DNA from: an uncultured Calditrichota bacterium
GTDB taxonomy: Bacteria; Calditrichota; Calditrichia; JAJRVZ01
Length of the DNA: 64,000 nucleotides
Direction of reading: 5' to 3'
NCBI GenBank assembly: GCA_964489835.1
Contig: CAZBBC010000008.1
Coordinates: 10,992 to 74,991 of the forward strand
This document shows, in pieces, positions 25,929 to 35,928 of the stretch. A model generated the notes under the pieces. It saw only the letters and a list, made by a program, of their open reading frames with translations, was not told the DNA's origin and ran no database searches. The translations under genes were made by a program, and so were the position numbers. How positions within the stretch are numbered: the stretch's first letter is position 1; the number at the start of each line of letters is the position of its first letter.

Positions 25929-27020
25929 TTACCGAAGGAGTATCATTTTCTTTCCATCCTGAAATTCACCAGCCTCAATCCTGTACAGGTAAACGCCACT
26001 TGCGAGATTGCTCCCATCAAACGTATAGGTATGATTTCCCGCCTGTAGTTTCTTATTCACAAGTGAAGCAATTTCTCCTCCAAGAATGTTGTAGATCTTG
26101 AGAGTAAGAAAAACTGACTGGGGTAATGTGAATTCGATAGTGGTTGTTGAATTGAATGGATTTGGGTAGTTCTTTTCTAAAAAATAGATTTCAGGATTAT
26201 GATCATTCGATTGGATACTCAAAGGTGAAGGGCTGCCTGCATTTTCCCATGCTGTTCTCCAGAGACTGGCAAGATCTAATATTGCTTTTTGAATAGAAAC
26301 TGTTGTTAAATGTTCAAGATCTTGCCATAAAATATTATAATAAGTTATATTGAAAGTGGGATCCTGAGCGCTGGCAAGATCATCTGCAATCATAATACTA
26401 TCCACATAGGGATAAATTTCTTCAATATGTAAAAAAACAGTATCAATAACATTTGACCAGTATTTTCCTGTGCCTGTTGCTAAGGGTAGTTGTGAAAGAT
26501 GTGGATTTATCATCTGTGTTTCATATCGTGAATGAATACCATCATTTCCTGTGTGTTGCCCATTATAATTTAAAGTCAGATGCAATGGCTGGTGAGAATC
26601 TGCCACATAATGTCCCAGTTCAGCTGCAATTTGCCAAACATCATCCCATTGACCAGCTGCCATTAATGTGCTTAAACTATCTGTCCACTCTTCAATAATC
26701 CAGGGGATAATGCCGTTATTTTGAACAATTGAAAGGTCGTAAAGCGTTATTAAACTATCCAAATTATGCGGAAGAGTCCCGGTAAAAAATTCCGGATAAT
26801 AATCAATATCAATATAATGATAGTATCCCGGTAATGGATCGGTATCCGGATCGACCGAATGTTGTTGCAGATAATTTCGATGATCCTGAAAAAACGACAT
26901 TTCAGTAGGTAGATAATCTACCGCATGTTCATTTATATAACCATGTGTATCCCATCCCCATTTTTTATTTTGGGCCAATAGTGAGGAACATACCATGAGA
27001 CTTATTAAAAAGTATTTCAC
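25929..27020 (-). CDS. Secreted S1/P1-nuclease / zinc phospholipase-C-superfamily-like protein with type IX secretion (T9SS) C-terminal sorting domain.
   Basis: Signal peptide. N-terminal WGWDTHGYINEHAVDYL resembles the Zn-binding start of P1 nuclease/PLC. C-terminal about 80 aa NYPNPFNSTTTIEFTLPQSVFLTLKIYNILGGEIASLVNKKLQAGNHTYTFDGSNLASGVYLYRIEAGEFQDGKKMILLR is a typical Por_Secre_tail. Confidence 0.7.
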   Translation of the reverse strand: MKYFLISLMVCSSLLAQNKKWGWDTHGYINEHAVDYLPTEMSFFQDHRNYLQQHSVDPDTDPLPGYYHYIDIDYYPEFFTGTLPHNLDSLITLYDLSIVQNNGIIPWIIEEWTDSLSTLMAAGQWDDVWQIAAELGHYVADSHQPLHLTLNYNGQHTGNDGIHSRYETQMINPHLSQLPLATGTGKYWSNVIDTVFLHIEEIYPYVDSIMIADDLASAQDPTFNITYYNILWQDLEHLTTVSIQKAILDLASLWRTAWENAGSPSPLSIQSNDHNPEIYFLEKNYPNPFNSTTTIEFTLPQSVFLTLKIYNILGGEIASLVNKKLQAGNHTYTFDGSNLASGVYLYRIEAGEFQDGKKMILLR

Positions 27021-29781: not shown

Positions 29782-30326
29782 TGGCTCAATTGGCAGCCGA
29801 TGAATTTAAATCCCCGTCGAGAATACATTTACCACTCAACCGTCATAGAATCCAATCGTAACACCGTATAAAATATTTTTTTACCAGTTGTCCAGAGCCA
29901 TTCTCTCATTTTCCACAGTGATTGTTTGCGTTGAAAAGACTTCTTCAGGATTCTTCAGTACAAAATCAAGTTGTAAGAGAGCGTATAGCAGGTAAATGCC
30001 TCTTTCCAATCCGATTTAATTAGAGATCTTCGATTTTCGATTGCAAATATGCACGTGATTTATATTTTTATATAGGTAGTGGCCTTGCTTATAATATTTC
30101 GTCCCTACCGGGACTGTTGAATATTGTATTATAAGATTGCAATAAATATTTTGTCTCTAACGGGACAGATATATCTTGTAATTTACCTCGAATATTCCTT
30201 ATGTTTAACGACAGGGATGCGTTACCGGCCACAAAACTTTGAGAACCTATGGACTTTATATAAAATCACATGCAAGGTTGCTGGGTCTACTGGCAAAATA
30301 TTAAGATTTGATCAGGTATATAATAT

Positions 30327-30360
30327 AAAAAAAAAGGGATGCGTAAGCATCCCTTTTTAT
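30327..30360. terminator. Rho-independent terminator (bidirectional A-run / hairpin / T-run) downstream of the FadL-like gene.
   Basis: aaaaaaaaa GGGATGC gtaa GCATCCC ttttt. Confidence 0.65.
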
Positions 30361-30374
30361 TGGTTTTACAAATA

Positions 30375-31592
30375 TTATTTACCGAAATGGATTACACCAC
30401 CAACGGTTACTCTGAAATCATTGACTGTATAGTCCACATCGGTACCAGCCACTTGAGCTCCGACATAACTGCCGAAAACATACTCGAAAGATCCATCCAG
30501 GATGATATTACCCATAATAATTCCCAAACCGGCGGTCACCGCATTAAAAGAAATCTGATCATCATTTTCATCGATACCTGGAGTTGGCAGTGTATAAAAT
30601 CCAACACGGAGCGGTAAGACATTATTACCTGCCTCAGCAAGATATTCCAGACCGACATGGATGGAATTAGCATTCTCAGCGTCCTCTAGTTTTTCTGTAA
30701 AAACTTCTCCATCGACTTCATATTCCCATTCGGCATTGGACCAGGGACGGCTTCTGTAATCGGCGGCAATGGTTAAATTATCACTGGCCCGTAAAGCCAG
30801 ACCGATACTGAAGGCAAAAGGAACATTTAGCTTATATTCAACATCATCAAAATCTTCCATCTTTGAATTTATCGTTACTGAATAAGGTAAGTTTAAATTG
30901 GCCCCGATCTGGACTGTCGGTGATGGTTTGACCAGTAAACCGATGTCAAATCCCACGCCGGAATATTTTTCCGAAGATTCGTCCTTATCATCACCGATAA
31001 AACCGCTGGTTTCTGATAAATAATCTGTGCTTCCGATTAAAATATTTGCTGCGGCACCAACGGAGATCATCTCATTTAACTGAATACCAAGGGCGGGAGA
31101 GATGGCGTCAACACCGCCTGTATTTTCCACCTTTGTTGTCGCTTCAAAACCCATGGCCTTGAAGGTCATTTCTACATTTTTTGTAAAATCAAACATACGG
31201 CGATAGGCGACACCACCGACGATGTTGATATTGCCGGCACTAAACGGAATCGCCAGACTGGCGAAATTTAACTGAAAAGTCGATCCTGTTTCCACGCTCA
31301 CATCGACATTCTGATAATCCGGATCTAGTGACCCAAAGCCGAAGCGTCCGATCACACTGGCTTCCGGGGAATATAACTGGGTTAAACCGGCCGCATTCCA
31401 GGAAATAGCGGTGGCATCATCGGCCAAACCGGTAAAGGCATTGCCCATACCGGCAGCACGTGCCCCATTACCATTCAGGACATATTGTTGTTCATCCTGT
31501 CCCATTATAACCTGACTTAAGACAAATACTAAAACCACCATGAAAAATAAAGATAAAAATTTCATTCGTTCCTCCCGTTGTACATTTAACAT
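30375..31592 (-). CDS. FadL/TodX/PorV-like outer-membrane beta-barrel protein.
   Basis: Signal peptide, then NGNGARAAGMGNAFTGLADDATAISWNAAGL, the hatch-domain signature of the FadL/Toluene_X/PorV superfamily. Alternating beta-strand pattern. C-terminal aromatic (HFGK). Confidence 0.65.
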   Translation of the reverse strand: MLNVQREERMKFLSLFFMVVLVFVLSQVIMGQDEQQYVLNGNGARAAGMGNAFTGLADDATAISWNAAGLTQLYSPEASVIGRFGFGSLDPDYQNVDVSVETGSTFQLNFASLAIPFSAGNINIVGGVAYRRMFDFTKNVEMTFKAMGFEATTKVENTGGVDAISPALGIQLNEMISVGAAANILIGSTDYLSETSGFIGDDKDESSEKYSGVGFDIGLLVKPSPTVQIGANLNLPYSVTINSKMEDFDDVEYKLNVPFAFSIGLALRASDNLTIAADYRSRPWSNAEWEYEVDGEVFTEKLEDAENANSIHVGLEYLAEAGNNVLPLRVGFYTLPTPGIDENDDQISFNAVTAGLGIIMGNIILDGSFEYVFGSYVGAQVAGTDVDYTVNDFRVTVGGVIHFGK

Positions 31593-31596
31593 TTAG

Positions 31597-32757
31597 TTAT
31601 TTGGTTAAAAATTTATCTCCGATTGATAAAATCCCTCCTTCAGAAGTTAGTTGTTTAGAAACACTGTATTTATCAAAAGCATCCGTTACCAGGACTTCTC
31701 CCAGCACGGTTGTCTCTTTTCCTAAAACTTCACCGGTTATCGGATGCTTGATGGGTGCACCCTCTTTATAAATGACACATTTCATTCCCTTTTTTAACCC
31801 GCCGTTTCGTCCGACATCCAGGATAAGTTGTTGTCCGTCAATTTTTATGATATATCCTTCGACCAGTGGTAGCGACTCGGTAATTTTCCGGGCCAGATTT
31901 TCAATCGCATTCTTTACACTCTGAGCATCGGAGCTGCTGGTGTAGGCATCGTGCGCGACAATAATCGCGGCTGATTCCGTATCAATAACCCGGGCATCTA
32001 TGCTGAGTGCTCCTGAAGCAGTAGCGGCGACACTGCCGATCACGATGGCGTCCACTCCGATACCCTTACCGATCTCTGCGGCCGTAGCCGCATCCAGTAC
32101 GCCCGTCTGGCCCAGTGACTGCTCGGCAATCACCTGGTCCAAAGCCGCCCTCTCCATTACCTTAAACCTATCCTGGTTCCACATCACGGTGATCATTTTA
32201 TCCAGAATAATTTCTCCTAAATCCTTGCTGGCCCCTTTGTTTTCAAACGGTAATACAGCCACTCCCATACGTTCACCGACCAGTTTGATGGTCTGTTTCC
32301 CGACAATCATATCCGTTTCCCTCGTCGATGGGACCATGGGTTTTACATCGGTTTTTTTCAGGGCCTCGGTGGGCTTTTTGGGTGTGGGTGGCGGGACGCC
32401 TCCGCCGATTTGACGAAGATACTCATTGGCACGCTCTGATGGCTCGTCCTGTAAAGATTTTTTCAGTTCCCTTTGTGCACCGGCGGTATCACCAAGATTG
32501 TAAAGGCATATGCCCAGTTCACGGTGCGGAAAATATTCAATAAAATGTAACCCATAGGTTCGCACTTTCTGCTTATCCGTGGGATTCCCTTTGATCGCAT
32601 CTTTAAGTAAAGTGGCAGCCTTCTGGTAATCACCCTTTTCCATTGCTTTTAATCCTTCATCATATACTTTAAACCACTCGCCTCCTGCCTGGAGTTGGGA
32701 AACAAATAAAAAACCCATGACAAGAATTAAAATAACCGGTAACCATTTATGGTTCAT
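31597..32757 (-). CDS. Periplasmic TPR protein fused to a CsgG/LpoB/TolB-N-like alpha/beta domain and a C-terminal beta domain.
   Basis: Signal peptide (cleavage after QLQA). TPR (YDEGLKAMEKGDYQKAATLLKDAIKGNP). Pro-rich linker. GVAVLPFENKGASKDLGEIILDKMITVMWNQDRFKVMERAALDQVIAEQSL...AAEIGKGIGVDAIVIGSV matches the CsgG/LpoB-type fold signature. 4-nt gap to the downstream FadL-like gene. Confidence 0.55.
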   Translation of the reverse strand: MNHKWLPVILILVMGFLFVSQLQAGGEWFKVYDEGLKAMEKGDYQKAATLLKDAIKGNPTDKQKVRTYGLHFIEYFPHRELGICLYNLGDTAGAQRELKKSLQDEPSERANEYLRQIGGGVPPPTPKKPTEALKKTDVKPMVPSTRETDMIVGKQTIKLVGERMGVAVLPFENKGASKDLGEIILDKMITVMWNQDRFKVMERAALDQVIAEQSLGQTGVLDAATAAEIGKGIGVDAIVIGSVAATASGALSIDARVIDTESAAIIVAHDAYTSSSDAQSVKNAIENLARKITESLPLVEGYIIKIDGQQLILDVGRNGGLKKGMKCVIYKEGAPIKHPITGEVLGKETTVLGEVLVTDAFDKYSVSKQLTSEGGILSIGDKFLTK

Positions 32758-33124
32758 TTTTTTACTCCAATAAATTATACTATGTAATTCTAATTATTTT
32801 AAACTTAAAGTCTTATCTCTTTTTTTCTGTATTATTACCACAAAAAACTTGATTATTTAAGCACCCTTTCGATGTCATTCAGTCCGCCGGGAGACGGATC
32901 CGCTTACTGGCCTGAAAGGAATCTTTCAAATTGTTGGCTAAATCCAACAAGAAAAAAGATCCTTACAGGATGACAAAATTAATTATTTTTTGTCTGCAGT
33001 TTTATGCTATTATAGCCAAAAACTTCGTTATTTTTTAAAAAATTTTTTTATTTTAGCAAAATTTTTGCTACTTGGATTATTCATTTCTCGCAGCGGCGCA
33101 GAGACACGACTATTTATAAATAAT

Positions 33125-33240
33125 TATTTTAGTTTTAATCCGTGTTAATTCGTGTCAGTCTTCGCCTGATCCGGCGTAGACGGATAATCCGTGGACAAAT
33201 TCTTTTTTTGATTGCAGCCAACGGCTGCGGTATGAATAAT
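33125..33240. repeat. Family A miniature intergenic repeat element (forward orientation).
   Basis: ttttaatccgtgttaattcgtgtcagtcttcgcctgatccggcgtagacggataatccgtggacaaattctttttttgattgcagccaacggctgcggtatgaata is near-identical to 61762-61868, and inverted to 54508-54615. Confidence 0.85.
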
Positions 33241-33245
33241 TAAGT

Positions 33246-33779
33246 TTAATTATAACAAATCAATGATAATATATCGTATTCGTTTATCAACTCCCGGCCT
33301 TTCAGAAAGCCCAATTCGATCAGGAATAAAATCGCTTCAACTTTCGCCCCTGATCTTTCGATCAAATGACAGGATGCCCGGGCAGTACCGCCGGTTGCCA
33401 GCAGATCATCAACGAGAAGCACTCTTGCACCGTGTTCGATGGCATCGGCGTGGATCTCGACGCTGTCCGTCCCATACTCCAGTGAATATTCTTCACGGAG
33501 AATTTTAGCCGGGAGTTTACCGGGTTTTCTGACAGGAACAAAACTTTTATTCAATTTATAAGCCAAAGCAGATCCAAAAATAAATCCTCTTGATTCAATT
33601 GCCGCGACGATATCAAACGATCTGTTTTTTATCAAATCATGTAACTGATCGATTGATTGAGCGAACAGATCAGCATCCTTTAAAAGCGTTGTGATATCTT
33701 TAAAGATGATACCCTTCTTGGGAAAATCCGGCACATCACGGATGGATGCTTTTAGTCTTACTATTTTATCTTCGTTCAT
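33246..33779 (-). CDS. apt: Adenine phosphoribosyltransferase.
   Basis: PDFPKKGIIFKDIT and PRPP-binding VLLVDDLLATGGTARA. Confidence 0.9.
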   Translation of the reverse strand: MNEDKIVRLKASIRDVPDFPKKGIIFKDITTLLKDADLFAQSIDQLHDLIKNRSFDIVAAIESRGFIFGSALAYKLNKSFVPVRKPGKLPAKILREEYSLEYGTDSVEIHADAIEHGARVLLVDDLLATGGTARASCHLIERSGAKVEAILFLIELGFLKGRELINEYDILSLICYN

Positions 33780-33791
33780 ATTTTGTGTTTT

Positions 33792-34067
33792 TTAATACTC
33801 GACAGAAAATTTTTGATATTTAGCTGTATATGGTTCAAAAGTGAAATCAATATTATCAACCAAAGAAAAACCCGGACCCTGTTCCAATATTGTCTTATAG
33901 TGTTCTATCACTTCTTTTTCGCCTTCAATACGCACTTCAACACTTCCGTCCGCAAGATTTTTAACATATCCCTTCAAACCATAGTCATTGGCGTGGCGCA
34001 TGGCGAAATAGCGAAAACCAACACCCTGAACTCTCCCCACAACCCGGATATGCGCACCTGTCATCAT
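33792..34067 (-). CDS. acyP: Acylphosphatase.
   Basis: VVGRVQGVGFRYF and GYVKNLADGSVEV, the acylphosphatase signatures. 91 aa. Confidence 0.85.
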   Translation of the reverse strand: MMTGAHIRVVGRVQGVGFRYFAMRHANDYGLKGYVKNLADGSVEVRIEGEKEVIEHYKTILEQGPGFSLVDNIDFTFEPYTAKYQKFSVEY

Positions 34068-34528
34068 CGCTTTTGCAGAAATCCGGATATTTTTGTCACT
34101 GCCTCCTGTGGCGTTGACACAGAAAATATTCTATCAGAAACATCCCAGGTATTCAATCCCACGACCGGTTTCTGCAATTGCAGCGCAAATGCTAATTCGG
34201 ATAGTGTACCAAAACCACCATTTACGGCAATTACGCCGGCGGCGGAGCGAATAATGATCAGATTTCTGCTAATCCCCAGACCGGTTGGTATCACGGTATC
34301 CACATAAGGATTGGCATCCTGCGGATCGTCACCGGGCAGAATACCAATCGTTCGACCACCATAATTTTTTGCTCCTTTGCAGGTCGCTTCCATGACACCG
34401 CCCAGGCCACCACAAATCACTATAAAACCGTTTTTTGCCAGCAGGGTCCCCAATTCTTCGCATAGCCGGTACATCTCTTTATCACAGTCTCTGGCGCCAA
34501 TAACGGCAATTGTTTTACTATAGCTCAA
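34064..34528 (-). CDS. LOG-family / TIGR00725 Rossmann-fold nucleotide-binding protein.
   Basis: ICGGLGGVMEA ... NGGFGTLSE matches the LOG (PGGxGTxxE) pattern. 154 aa. Confidence 0.7.
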   Translation of the reverse strand: MSYSKTIAVIGARDCDKEMYRLCEELGTLLAKNGFIVICGGLGGVMEATCKGAKNYGGRTIGILPGDDPQDANPYVDTVIPTGLGISRNLIIIRSAAGVIAVNGGFGTLSELAFALQLQKPVVGLNTWDVSDRIFSVSTPQEAVTKISGFLQKR

Positions 34529-34534
34529 TTTTAT

Positions 34535-34612
34535 ACTTCGTTTCTTTGTTCACGTGCTTCGTGGATTATTTTTTTTGTTTGCAGCATCGCTGCTGTATGA
34601 ATAGAACAGGTT
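34535..34612. repeat. Partial family A repeat (hairpin GCAGCATCGCTGC module plus CGTG dyad).
   Basis: ttcacgtgcttcgtggattattttttttgtttgcagcatcgctgctgtatgaataga matches the right end of the 61801-61870 and 33181-33240 copies. Confidence 0.7.
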
Positions 34613-34620
34613 ACTCTGCA

Positions 34621-35928
34621 TTAGGGATAAATACGCTGCATCAATCTGGGAAACGGAATCGCTTCTCGCAGGTGCTTAATACCGCATATCCAGGCGACAG
34701 TTCGTTCGATGCCTAATCCAAATCCGGAATGGGGTACAGAACCGTATTTCCGAAGGTCCAGGTACCACTGAAAGGCTTCCTCCGGCAACTGGTGTTCGCG
34801 GATACGTTCCAGTAATAGATCATGATCATCTTCTCTCTGTGACCCGCCGATAATTTCACCATAGCCTTCCGGAGCCAGTACATCCATCGCCAAAGCCTGA
34901 TCCTTGATTTCCGGATCTCGCTTCATATAAAAAGCTTTAATCGCCGCCGGATAATGATGGACGATCACCGGACGGTCATATTTCTCTGAGATAACCGTCT
35001 CATCACTTGCCCCAAAATCATCACCGTAAGCAAAATCTACACCCGCCGCTTTTAAAATTTTCACTGCGTCGTCATAATGTAAACGCGGAAACGGGGTTTT
35101 AATTTTCTCAAGTCGGCTGATATCTCTTTCTAGTATATCCAGTTCTTTTTTTCTATTTTTCAATACACTTTTAACAATATGTTCAAGGAAATCTTCAGCA
35201 AGACACATATCATCTGCCAGATCAAAAAAAGCAACTTCCGGCTCGATCATCCAGAATTCCGTTAAATGTCGTCTGGTTTTTGATTTTTCCGCTCTGAAGG
35301 TGGGACCAAAACAATAGATTTTTCCAAAAGCCATCGCTGCTGCTTCCCCGTAGAGCTGCCCGGATTGGGTAAGGAAAGCATTTCTGCCAAAATAATCGGT
35401 TGAGAACAGTGTGGTCGTTCCCTCTGCAGCATTTGGCGTGAAAATAGGTGTATCGATCAGAACAAAATCGCGATCATCGAAAAATTCTCTCGCGGCACGA
35501 ATGATCTCATGACGGATGCGCATGATAGCGTGTGGTCGTGAAGAGCGCAACCAAAGATGTCGATGATCCATTAAAAAATCAACACCATGCTCTTTCTTAC
35601 TGATCGGATAGTCTTTGGATAGTTGGATCATTTCAATCGCTCGGACCTGAATCTCATATCCGAGCGGTGAGCGCTTATCCTGATTGACGATACCGGTGAC
35701 ACGGCAGGAACTTTCCTGCAGCAAATCGTCAGCAGCGGTAAATGATTCTTCTGAAACATCTCCTTTAAAAACAACACATTGTATCGTTTCCGTACCGTCC
35801 CTAACCAGCAAAAATCTCAACTTGCCACTGGATCGCTTGTTATAAACCCATCCCTTAATTGTGACTTCCTTATGATCATAGTCGGCCACATCTTTTATAT
35901 AGATATTGATTGCCATAAGCGGTAACAA
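34621..35928 (-). CDS. asnS: Asparagine--tRNA ligase.
   Basis: Class II aaRS motifs [25 protein letters not shown] and [16 protein letters not shown]-terminal OB fold. 435 aa length fits AsnS rather than AspS. Confidence 0.85.

Follow-up and report, generated by a model that had tools for sequence, protein, structure and literature searches.

The locus analysed here lies in a 64,000-nucleotide stretch of an uncultured Calditrichota genome (the window) and raises a simple question: are a periplasmic TPR protein with a CsgG-like domain and the outer-membrane barrel encoded next to it parts of a secretion system, a transporter, or something else? Public names give inconsistent and misleading answers that a defined family would correct. 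Homologs of the first gene are called ‘curli … secretion channel CsgG’, ‘TolB-like’ or ‘hypothetical’ (some are placed in the NCBI CsgG/HfaB family), and those of the second ‘long-chain fatty acid transport’, ‘OmpP1/FadL’ or ‘PorV/PorQ’. We found no publication on the pair. It is a real, widely conserved and unstudied two-gene unit, and it is neither a curli-type channel nor a demonstrated part of type IX secretion (T9SS). The barrel next door probably anchors the scaffold encoded by gene 1.

Both open reading frames are on the minus strand and constitute a self-contained two-gene operon closed by a strong terminator, as the first-pass annotation had proposed. The layout is as follows:

31597..32757, minus strand, gene 1, an ORF of 386 aa
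30375..31592, minus strand, gene 2 as its longest ORF, 405 aa
30375..31565, minus strand, gene 2 from its probable start Met10, a predicted FadL-fold outer-membrane barrel of 396 aa
32774..32803, minus strand, promoter-like site just 5' of gene 1 (TTTAAA, 18-nt spacer, TATAAT)
31571..31576, minus strand, Shine-Dalgarno GGGAGG of gene 2, inside the 31-nt spacer
30331..30358, minus strand, intrinsic terminator, a 12-bp stem (5 of its pairs are G-C) and then a T-run

The TTTAAA/TATAAT site is a consensus match only, and the promoter type of Calditrichota itself may differ. Gene 1 has a GGAG Shine-Dalgarno ~9 nt ahead of its ATG. Gene 2 most likely starts at Met10, because a second ATG, at 31565, has GGGAGG (31576..31571) ahead of it and a 100%-identical protein recorded among the NCBI-derived entries of the collection has 396 aa. 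The gap of 4 nt originally given between the genes is true for the longest ORF only, and the Met10 start gives a 31-nt spacer. The terminator stem and T-run (30358..30331) begin 17 nt past the gene 2 stop. Neighbours of the pair in the window encode apt, acylphosphatase, SLOG, AsnRS, an alginate-lyase-like protein and a metallophosphoesterase.

The architecture of gene 1 occurs in at least 500 species representatives of Calditrichota, KSB1, Zixibacteria, WOR-3, Ignavibacteriota, Cloacimonadota and some Bacteroidota. Conservation of the gene neighbourhood, named in the first-pass annotation as a way to check the pairing, is evident: of 76 genomes in which the sequence extends far enough downstream, 73 have a gene for an outer-membrane barrel directly 3' of the gene 1 homolog. 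The barrel is FadL-type at 48 of these 76 loci (median gap 23 nt) and a small barrel of ~200-250 aa with a C-terminal Phe at 25 (median gap 57 nt); at three loci (L013, L064, L069) no barrel was found downstream. The two barrel types have no detectable homology to one another, and the small one matches only the generic OMP_b-brl family, not OmpW. A small unrelated barrel thus stands in for the FadL type in about one third of the genomes.

The constant feature is some barrel, rather than one particular channel, and a barrel in cis is not strictly obligatory, given the three loci that have none. Loci of both classes sit near apt and asnS, and a class-wise comparison of conservation found no domain or region of gene 1 that diverges by partner barrel class. 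Because of this common context and the lack of class-specific divergence, the loci fit orthologous scaffolds with a swapped anchor. In 13 loci, drawn from both barrel classes, the pair is accompanied by a gene for a non-lipidated LPP20/DUF4136 protein; together with gene 1 this protein covers all three FlgT domain types.

Gene 1 encodes an exported, non-lipidated periplasmic scaffold with these parts:

32686..32757, minus strand, signal peptide, aa 1-24, SPase-I type as read from sequence, ending …SQLQA|GGEW, no lipobox Cys
32398..32679, minus strand, TPR head, aa ~27-120, about three repeats
32512..32574, minus strand, near-invariant β-hairpin insert in the TPR head, aa 62-82, KVRTYGLHFIEYFPHRELGIC
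32278..32397, minus strand, Pro/Lys/Thr-rich disordered linker, aa ~121-160, pLDDT 28-50
31870..32277, minus strand, compact α/β domain, aa ~161-296, of the TolB-N/LpoB/PelC/FlgT-M/CsgG-N class, lacking the CsgG membrane hairpins
31600..31869, minus strand, C-terminal β-roll, aa ~297-386, FlgT-C/TsaP-C-like

The protein scores 28.6 bits against TPR_2 (cut-off 27) and 46.2 bits against CsgG PF03783 (gathering score 20.8), the latter over profile positions 9-101 of 210 only. PF03783 is matched by all 24 of 24 family members; matches to TolB_N, FlgO and LpoB are weaker, with weak Pfam LpoB matches in 18 of the 24. The best structural matches of the α/β domain (~135 aa) are TolB-N, PelC, LpoB and FlgT. 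The motif string from which this fold had been read is present near-verbatim (VAVLPFEN…LGE…FKVMER…LDQVIAEQ…IGKGIGVDAIVIGSV), except that the portion given as ‘D.L.T.L’ has the letters D-K-M-I-T-V-M. Profile matches and the AF2 model bear out the domain calls that had been made (TPR, Pro-rich linker, CsgG/LpoB/TolB-N-type domain, extra C-terminal β domain), and profile searches found no curated family that spans the whole architecture, in keeping with the view that the fusion lies outside named families. The C-terminal domain, which had been left unidentified, is FlgT-C/TsaP-like.

The β-hairpin is the best-conserved stretch in the N-terminal half of gene 1, with invariant columns R66, T67, Y68, G69, H71, Y75, P77, R79, E80 and G82 and within-class conservation of 0.76 and 0.79 for the two partner barrel classes. 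The AF2 model places its strands at 62-66 and 72-75. This model is of moderate quality (mean pLDDT 68, pTM 0.38) and leaves interdomain geometry undefined; pLDDT falls below 50 at residues 126-163, which indicates that the linker is disordered. Across 55 family members the linker is 24-73 aa long (median 41) and consists of 77% disorder-promoting residues. Long-form relatives have one to several Ig-like domains instead of the linker and keep the TPR head and the α/β-β-roll cassette. This cassette occurs with Ig-like spacers in several hundred further 50%-identity cluster representatives, and a Toluene_X/FadL gene adjoins or lies one gene off in 2 of 5 distinct long-form contexts. The linker behaves as a spacer, being disordered, variable and replaceable by Ig-like domains. 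Although CsgG, LpoB, PelC, GNA1162 and LPP20 are classically lipoproteins, none of the 54 gene 1 homologs checked has a true lipobox, and two regex matches fall within the hydrophobic core of the signal peptide.

For gene 2, the assignment to the FadL/PorV class of barrels holds at the level of fold (Foldseek TM 0.58-0.62 to FadL, TodX, TbuX and BamG, E down to 2e-13). All three solved BamG chains are among its top structural matches, and PorV is absent from the top 50. A PDB sequence search gave a single significant match, chain F of the BAM complex 9hiv from B. thetaiotaomicron (E 5.7e-7). Likewise, the top NCBIfam match is BamG NF053685, at 74.9 bits vs an equivalog cut-off of 250; eight homologs fall at 52-94 bits, three of them from Bacteroidota MAGs (61-85). 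PorV_fam NF033709 comes second (56.1 bits vs a cut-off of 90), with homologs at 35-72 bits, the highest in a Cloacimonadota homolog, and the PorV/PorQ equivalogs NF033710 and NF033711 gave no match. Toluene_X PF03349 reaches 24.8 bits, under its gathering score of 29.7, and the FadL equivalog gave no match. Many homologs have precomputed PF03349 matches, which puts the family at the edge of that model. Judged by sequence, the nearest relatives of gene 2 are BamG and PorV/PorQ, yet it stays below every curated cut-off.

Two features mark its N-terminal region:

31368..31499, minus strand, hatch-like N-terminal segment, mature aa ~23-66, LNGNGARAAGMGNAFTGLADDATAISWNAAGLTQL
31389..31397, minus strand, N-A-A motif, reading W-N-A-A-G-L

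The hatch segment is the best-conserved part of gene 2 (invariant columns G32-L61) and is modelled by AF2 with low confidence (pLDDT <50). It had been described as a canonical NPA hatch; the window protein instead has N-A-A. W-N-A-A-G is shared with many Calditrichota homologs, and NPA is present in more distant relatives from KSB1, Bacteroidota, Ignavibacteriota and Cloacimonadota. NAA variants also occur in treponemal FadL orthologs (PMC8407342). The tail ahead of the hatch motif is short and variable, and alignment of the FadL model PRK10716 to two gene 2 family precursors gave a 5-residue offset (2-67 to 7-72; 30-170 to 35-180).

So, what might the pair do? The domains of gene 1, its lack of a lipobox, the operon, the adjacency to either of two unrelated barrel types and the variable, replaceable spacer are direct observations. 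We tentatively favour, with a confidence a little short of even, a two-component envelope module in which the barrel tethers the scaffold at the outer membrane and the linker extends the TPR head to a client. The FadL-type barrel would act mainly as a membrane anchor or docking platform. Gene 1 would leave the cytoplasm through Sec and lose its signal peptide to signal peptidase I; since it has no lipid anchor, its place at the outer membrane would have to depend on a protein partner, for which the barrel encoded next to it is the obvious choice. The α/β domain and β-roll may form a membrane-proximal base, possibly oligomeric, from which the flexible 24-73-residue linker would let the TPR head and its invariant β-hairpin reach a putative periplasmic client. 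Such an arrangement would resemble the outer-membrane-tethered adaptors LpoB, LpoP and TsaP. We infer the binding of gene 1 to the barrel, along with the docking end, topology, oligomeric state and client.

Anchoring barrels are known from the same superphylum, where BamG anchors BamH, and PorV and PorQ anchor PorU and PorZ. FlgT and TsaP use the β-roll fold to build belts around outer-membrane machines. BamG is documented to serve for docking, not transport (PMC12611786, PMC12578637), the FlgT-C-like β-rolls of TsaP encircle the PilQ barrel as a belt and connect through a disordered linker to another domain that provides anchoring (bioRxiv 10.1101/2020.05.29.123786), and in some treponemal FadL orthologs periplasmic TPR bundles are fused to the barrel (PMC8407342). 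The belt analogy is a loose one, as the periplasmic turns of FadL are short, unlike the PilQ and LP-ring surfaces that TsaP and FlgT embrace. The lack of co-variation between gene 1 and barrel class is at best neutral for a specific docking interface, and the conserved FadL-type hatch of gene 2 could mean that some transport is retained.

Four other readings, all weaker than anchoring, draw on the same data. Gene 2 may be a working FadL channel for hydrophobic substrates, with gene 1 as a periplasmic acceptor or coupler toward the inner membrane. The FadL fold (TM about 0.6 to FadL, TodX and TbuX), the conserved hatch-like N-terminus, the source labels of its homologs as long-chain fatty acid transport proteins and the fusion of treponemal FadLs to periplasmic TPR bundles are all consistent with uptake. 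The ability of OmpW-type small 8-strand barrels to conduct hydrophobic molecules counts on the same side, but the small-barrel partner matches OMP_b-brl only, not OmpW. We consider uptake rather unlikely: the Toluene_X score is below its cut-off (24.8 vs 29.7) and the window protein has no FadL equivalog match, no domain of gene 1 corresponds to a known lipid-binding fold, and fatty-acid or aromatic catabolic genes are absent near the pair in the window. The motif is N-A-A, not NPA, and in FadL the P34A substitution abolishes transport; the structure of this mutant, 2r4l, is among the structural matches listed for gene 2. A BAM-associated module, with gene 2 as a BamG paralog docking on BamA and gene 1 as a periplasmic accessory in place of the surface lipoprotein BamH, would explain why BamG is the top NCBIfam match of gene 2 and its homologs (52-94 bits), why BtBamG is its sole significant PDB sequence match and why three solved BamG chains are among its top structural matches. 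BamG paralogs do occur in two-gene operons with a partner, such as bamG2-bamH2, and a further BamG homologue, standing alone, is listed for Caldithrix abyssi (Cabys_3919); it is a putative member of the gene 2 family. This reading is nevertheless quite unlikely. The scores are far under the 250-bit equivalog cut-off even for homologs from MAGs of Bacteroidota (61-85 bits), a phylum in which true BamG is reported to be universal; the canonical C. abyssi BamG adjoins BamH as a separate gene; and about one third of the genomes have the unrelated small barrel. BamG is defined by a conserved N-terminal extension relative to FadL (PMC12578637), and these 10-12 residues are absent from gene 2, as the 5-residue PRK10716 offset indicates.

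The first-pass annotation had also raised a role as a T9SS accessory. In such a role gene 2 would be a PorV/PorQ-like shuttle or anchor for cargo or attachment-complex proteins and gene 1 its periplasmic partner, as PorE is for PorP. The window does encode a T9SS-sorted protein (25929..27020, Por_Secre_tail, 46 bits), the family is distributed across the FCB group, in which T9SS is found, PorV_fam is the second-best family match (56 bits, and up to 72 in the Cloacimonadota homolog), and one Caldithrix homolog is named ‘PorV/PorQ family protein’ in UniRef. However, that cargo gene, the sole basis for the link, lies 3.4 kb from the pair, with two unrelated transcription units of separate orientation in between, and no T9SS machinery gene was found near the pair in the window or in the 79 loci inspected. 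The PorV_fam score is under its 90-bit cut-off, the window protein has no PorV/PorQ equivalog match, PorV is outside the top 50 structural matches, the small barrel that replaces gene 2 is not PorV-like, and gene 1 ends in a FlgT-C/TsaP-like domain, not a T9SS C-terminal sorting domain. We regard a T9SS role as highly unlikely. There is only a minute chance that gene 1 builds a CsgG/PelBC-type ring that forms, or funnels into, an export pore for amyloid or exopolysaccharide, as the CsgG resemblance had implied. The ~135-aa domain matches only the N-terminal half of the CsgG profile (9-101 of 210), has no possible transmembrane hairpin segments and finds its best matches in TolB-N, PelC, LpoB and FlgT; the lumen of the FadL barrel would be filled by its own hatch, and the alternative barrel (~180 mature residues) would be too small for polymer export. 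No csgA, csgB, csgE, csgF, Pel or polysaccharide synthesis genes were found near the pair in the window. With its defining features, the lipobox and the transmembrane hairpins, missing, the CsgG-type channel is largely refuted.

If the barrel does anchor the scaffold, as we favour, the pair would represent a second route, besides lipidation, to fix scaffolds of the TolB-N/LpoB/FlgT class at the outer membrane, and would extend an FCB theme of FadL-fold barrels (BamG, PorV, PorQ) used as docking platforms, not transporters. The scaffold classes LpoB, CsgG, TolB-N, LPP20 and FlgT are lipid-anchored in Proteobacteria, and we know of no Lpo-type adaptors in the FCB phyla that carry the module. A broader proposal, which we think unlikely as it stands, is that FCB bacteria tether these classes by dedicated, interchangeable β-barrels, with the pair as the core of an envelope-spanning adaptor and a possible functional equivalent of the Lpo/CpoB-type regulators, through which peptidoglycan synthesis or another periplasmic machine is coupled to the outer membrane. 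The findings overturn no established view; the module is a sizeable unannotated part of envelope biology.

How does the pair compare with known systems? FlgT of the Vibrio flagellar H-ring (3w1e, 8z5n) has M-like and C-like domains in common with gene 1, which lacks FlgT_N and has a TPR head and disordered linker instead. Sequence-level FlgT_C matches occur in just 6 of 24 gene 1 members (best E 0.006). FlgT, unlike gene 1, is not paired with a barrel gene, and no flagellar genes were found in the window neighbourhood or the inspected loci. TsaP, the type IV pilus secretin ring protein (3jc8, 6ve2), matches the gene 1 C-terminus in sequence through its FlgT-C-like β-roll (E 7.5e-5) and similarly combines a β-roll, a disordered linker, a second interaction domain and association with an outer-membrane β-barrel. 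TsaP differs in its LysM peptidoglycan-binding domain and its two β-rolls in tandem, where gene 1 has TPR, α/β and one β-roll, and in its partner, a secretin that is not encoded adjacently. The class A PBP activators LpoB, LpoP and LpoA are lipoproteins of Gammaproteobacteria, whereas gene 1 is non-lipidated, scores 13.9 bits vs 110.55 for the LpoB equivalog TIGR02722, combines both of their domain types and adds the β-roll. CsgG has the N-terminal α/β core in common with gene 1, as reflected in the PF03783 match above the gathering threshold, but gene 1 lacks the lipobox, the transmembrane hairpins of the 36-strand pore and csg neighbours, and Foldseek gives a weak structural similarity (E about 8e-4, TMt 0.37). 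The likeness to TolB (TIGR02800, 21.2 bits vs 343) is confined to the N-domain (profile positions 20-150), with a 90-aa β-roll in place of the six-bladed β-propeller.

In Treponema pallidum, TP0548, TP0859 and TP0865 couple a FadL-type barrel, with NAA variants, to a C-terminal periplasmic TPR element (PMC8407342), although these are single-polypeptide fusions with a small helical bundle, no α/β domain or β-roll, and belong to an unrelated lineage. PorV and PorQ have their taxonomic range and the logic of an anchoring barrel in common with gene 2, for which they are the second-best family match, albeit sub-cut-off, with no equivalog match and no T9SS machinery context. BamG differs in the N-terminal extension that gene 2 lacks, in its surface lipoprotein partner BamH (that of gene 2 is periplasmic and non-lipidated) and in forming a separate bamG-bamH pair in C. 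abyssi. Even so, family models and the PDB sequence search both place BamG (9hiv_F, 9n2d_B, 9hjm_F) nearest to gene 2, and, like gene 2, it is a FadL-fold barrel of the FCB superphylum in a two-gene unit with a non-integral partner.

The pair occupies two adjacent minus-strand open reading frames, preceded by a promoter-like site and followed by a terminator, which bears out the first-pass annotation of a two-gene operon at 30375-32757 that ends in a strong terminator. Its features are as follows.

31597..32757, minus strand: gene 1 open reading frame, 386 aa
30375..31592, minus strand: gene 2, longest open reading frame, 405 aa
Upstream of gene 1, minus strand: promoter-like site TTTAAA-18-TATAAT (motif match)
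Before gene 1, minus strand: GGAG ribosome-binding site
30358..30331, minus strand: terminator with a 12-bp stem and T-run, 17 nt past the gene 2 stop

The junction reads TAA-ctaa-ATG…cGGGAGGaacgaATG, and the genes had been placed 4 nt apart. However, a strong Shine-Dalgarno sequence precedes a second gene 2 ATG at 31565, and the protein recorded with 100% identity among the NCBI-derived entries of the collection has 396 aa, so Met10 is the most probable start of gene 2, giving a spacer of 31 nt. With either start the two genes still read as an operon. The flanking genes are unrelated to the pair: apt, acylphosphatase, a SLOG protein, AsnRS and FBPase on one side, and an alginate-lyase-like protein, a metallophosphoesterase and a phospholipase-C/S1-P1-like protein with a T9SS sorting tail on the other. 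This tailed protein (25929-27020, minus strand; secreted zinc-dependent phospholipase-C/S1-P1-nuclease-like domain plus T9SS C-terminal sorting domain, Por_Secre_tail, 46 bits) shows that the Calditrichota genome uses T9SS-type sorting; its gene is unlinked to the operon. The intergenic regions at 32758-33245 (~490 nt) and 29782-30330 (~550 nt) are unusually long and AT-rich, and neither contains a convincing ORF or an Rfam match at the gathering threshold. Short hairpins and T-runs are visible in the upstream region, e.g., around 32960-32985; the Rfam scan of the whole window returned a tRNA as its sole match. The window contains no paralogs of gene 1 or gene 2, nor of the LPP20-type gene discussed below.

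Every domain of the pair belongs to a known fold class. The gene 1 signal peptide ends at …SQLQA, before GGEW, and there is no lipobox cysteine, here or across the family. The linker (residues ~121-160) is Pro-/Lys-/Thr-rich and disordered, and ranges from 24 to 73 residues among 55 family members. The predicted model is only moderate (pLDDT 68) and leaves the arrangement of the domains undefined. The fold used by CsgG, LpoB and TolB-N had been proposed for gene 1; the CsgG profile does match, over half its length, but the features of a curli channel are absent. A curli-type channel is ruled out by this half-profile match and the lack of a lipobox, transmembrane hairpin segments and curli genes. 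A T9SS sorting domain at the C-terminus is likewise ruled out: the domain matches TsaP/FlgT_C, and gene 1 has no Por_Secre_tail match.

The AF2 model of gene 2 is a confident barrel (pLDDT 79, pTM 0.77) that superposes at TM ~0.6 on FadL, TodX, TbuX, CymD and three solved BamG chains, in agreement with its initial description as a FadL-type barrel; PorV is absent from the top 50 structural matches. Family models rank BamG first (75 bits, cut-off 250), then PorV_fam (56, cut-off 90), PorVQ2 (30) and Toluene_X (24.8, cut-off 29.7), so gene 2 falls under every curated threshold. A sequence search of the PDB gives one significant match, to the B. thetaiotaomicron BAM complex 9hiv (chain F, E 5.7e-7), an entry that contains BamA, BamD and BamG; chain F is labeled ‘Outer membrane protein’ and is very likely BamG. 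The most conserved part of the protein is the hatch-like N-terminal segment. A canonical NPA hatch had been ascribed to gene 2, but gene 2 and many Calditrichota homologs have N-A-A, with NPA in more distant members. In FadL, the P34A substitution abolishes transport. The N-A-A variant is also reported in two treponemal FadL orthologs (PMC8407342).

Is gene 2 then BamG? Homologs from Bacteroidota MAGs, where true BamG is reported to be universal, reach only 61-85 bits against the BamG model. BamG has a 10-12-residue N-terminal extension relative to FadL (PMC12578637), whereas the gene 2 family lacks it. Caldithrix abyssi is listed with two BamG homologs, Cabys_4206, adjoining BamH (Cabys_4207), and the solitary Cabys_3919 (PMC12611786, Supplementary Table 1). 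The low scores of the Bacteroidota homologs, the missing extension and the distinct BamH-adjacent BamG in C. abyssi indicate that gene 2 is not BamG itself; with the equivalog score, the last two rule out true orthology. Possibly Cabys_3919 is the ortholog of gene 2; in that case, what the literature lists as an ‘extra BamG’ of Calditrichota would in fact partner the scaffold protein encoded by gene 1.

In the species-representative genome set, at least 502 stretches encode the full gene 1 architecture. We inspected the best 79 of these, loci from 79 different genomes, using MAG taxonomy labels as given in the records. They are labeled Calditrichota, KSB1, Zixibacteria, WOR-3, Ignavibacteriota, Bacteroidota and Cloacimonadota, with a few bins that are probably mislabeled. 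The source organism belongs to Calditrichota: every named match from the homology search is a member of this phylum, as are, by label, nearly all of the closest genomic loci. Several loci of high identity to Calditrichota/KSB1 sequences (L001, L015, L025, L035-L037 and L066) come from bins labeled Pirellulales, Deferribacteres, Chlorobiales, Cytophagia or Synechococcus, and are probably mis-binned or mislabeled MAG contigs.

Among the 76 loci with sufficient downstream sequence, a gene 2 homolog lies directly 3′ of gene 1 in 48 (median gap 23 nt), so the adjacency noted in this genome extends to its relatives. In 25 (median gap 57 nt) the position is instead filled by a small protein of ~200-250 aa that has a signal peptide, matches OMP_b-brl weakly or at the borderline and ends in a …TAGxVF β-signal, and the remaining three have neither barrel type. 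The small barrel, found in about a third of the genomes (loci L032-L062; e.g., L045 7197-7835 and 7914-9281, and L054 7224-7853 and 7924-9288), also carries a conserved ‘QIEVFGGxAIPLxPxxFKDYYK’ motif. The two barrel types have no detectable homology by hhalign, which pairs signal peptides only (44% probability); a truncated FadL-type barrel is thus ruled out. Loci of both classes lie near apt and asnS, and this shared setting suggests an ancestral chromosomal position in which the barrel gene was exchanged later. The scaffold gene adjoins apt, with asnS and often a SLOG/LOG-like gene nearby (window 33246-35928; L013, L032, L033, L044, L046), and the orientation differs between the classes. No gene 1 region was found that co-varies with barrel class as a docking surface might. 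Given the unrelated barrels, the shared setting and the lack of class-specific divergence of gene 1 domains, the constant is ‘scaffold plus an outer-membrane barrel’, not ‘scaffold plus FadL’. Two WOR-3-type loci (L064 107-2034, L069 3001-5947) encode the scaffold without a downstream barrel, with a FlgT_N + CsgG-like protein and a FecR-domain protein upstream; L069 also has an upstream lipoprotein with SLH and TPR domains, and downstream genes resembling microcompartment-shell (BMC) proteins.

In 13 loci, of both partner classes, a ~460-aa LPP20 + DUF4136 protein is encoded alongside the pair. It comes next after the small barrel in nine and also occurs at four FadL-type loci (L011, L075, L076, L077). 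The six seed members read have no lipobox. Because the fold of LPP20 is FlgT-N-like, two proteins at these loci between them cover the three domain types of FlgT.

An exhaustive profile search returned 598 cluster representatives at E ≤ 1e-30. Many are 650-700 aa long and keep the TPR head and the α/β plus β-roll cassette, with one to several Ig-like domains (Glucodextran_B, Big_13, Cadherin-like) in place of the disordered linker (e.g., search proteins P0270-P0390; loci L080-L085). What joins head and cassette thus acts like a spacer whose length and stiffness vary. In two of five distinct long-form contexts sampled, a Toluene_X/FadL gene is adjacent or one gene off (L080/L081, L083). In the other three, the gene directly follows one for a CHAT/Peptidase_C25 (caspase-like) protein that itself has a CsgG/LpoB-like domain. 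A guanylate-cyclase domain is present in one of these proteins as well; two of the contexts have an ECF sigma-factor gene nearby (L084, L085), and an anti-sigma (zf-HC2) gene occurs in L084. These contexts may represent a periplasmic protease or signaling system. A single 1198-aa chain, P0375, has five tandem CsgG/LpoB-like domains (CsgG 196 bits over 5 stretches).

So, what does the barrel do? Its FadL fold and conserved hatch would suit an uptake channel, with gene 1 as periplasmic acceptor, but the sub-threshold scores, the NAA motif, the fact that gene 1 contains no lipid-binding fold, the swapping of the barrel between loci and the absence of catabolic neighbor genes make this unlikely. 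The affinities to BamG raise the prospect of a BamG-paralog accessory of the BAM machinery, which is distinctly improbable given the score under the BamG cut-off, the missing extension and, again, the exchanged barrel. The role as a T9SS accessory envisaged at first for a PorV-type barrel is supported only by a similarity to PorV that stays under the threshold and by a cargo gene not linked to the operon; scores under the cut-offs and the lack of T9SS genes nearby speak against a PorV/PorQ member or part of a T9SS operon, and we consider even an accessory role very improbable. The probability that gene 1 forms a CsgG- or PelBC-type export channel is close to nil, as the defining features were tested and are absent.

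The CsgG, LpoB, PelC, GNA1162 and LPP20 domains of gene 1’s class are classically lipid-anchored to the outer membrane. In the gene 1 family, the scaffold domains regularly lack lipidation and regularly have a barrel encoded beside them, which can be of either of two unrelated types; read most simply, the barrel is what anchors them to the membrane. The barrel would hold the non-lipidated gene 1 protein at the outer membrane, the α/β plus β-roll base would be seated beneath it, and the spacer would allow the TPR head and invariant hairpin to reach a client deeper in the periplasm, like LpoB and LpoP. We favor this composite model tentatively, at a little below an even chance; what the sequences show directly is the make-up of the domains, the absent lipobox, the conserved adjacency and the varying spacer, whereas physical binding of gene 1 to the barrel, its orientation and stoichiometry, and the client are parts of it that we infer.

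Literature on FlgT/TsaP/TolB/LpoB, CsgG-like/FadL/TPR and Calditrichaeota/T9SS/PorV yielded no paper on the pair or its architecture, and public annotation of the homologs of both genes is inconsistent. The idea of a FadL barrel as platform is recent but established. What is new is this particular set of domains in combination, the consistent disappearance of lipidation in step with a co-encoded barrel that can be swapped, and how widely the family is distributed. That barrel-tethered envelope adaptors replace Lpo/CpoB-type factors as a general FCB strategy is conceivable, yet rather doubtful.

By analogy, the anchor model fits the behavior of known systems. BamG serves BamH as a docking platform instead of acting in transport (PMC12611786, PMC12578637), and PorV and PorQ hold partner proteins, much as gene 2 would. 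In TsaP, FlgT-C-like β-rolls belt an outer-membrane barrel machine, and a disordered linker leads to a second anchoring domain (bioRxiv 10.1101/2020.05.29.123786).
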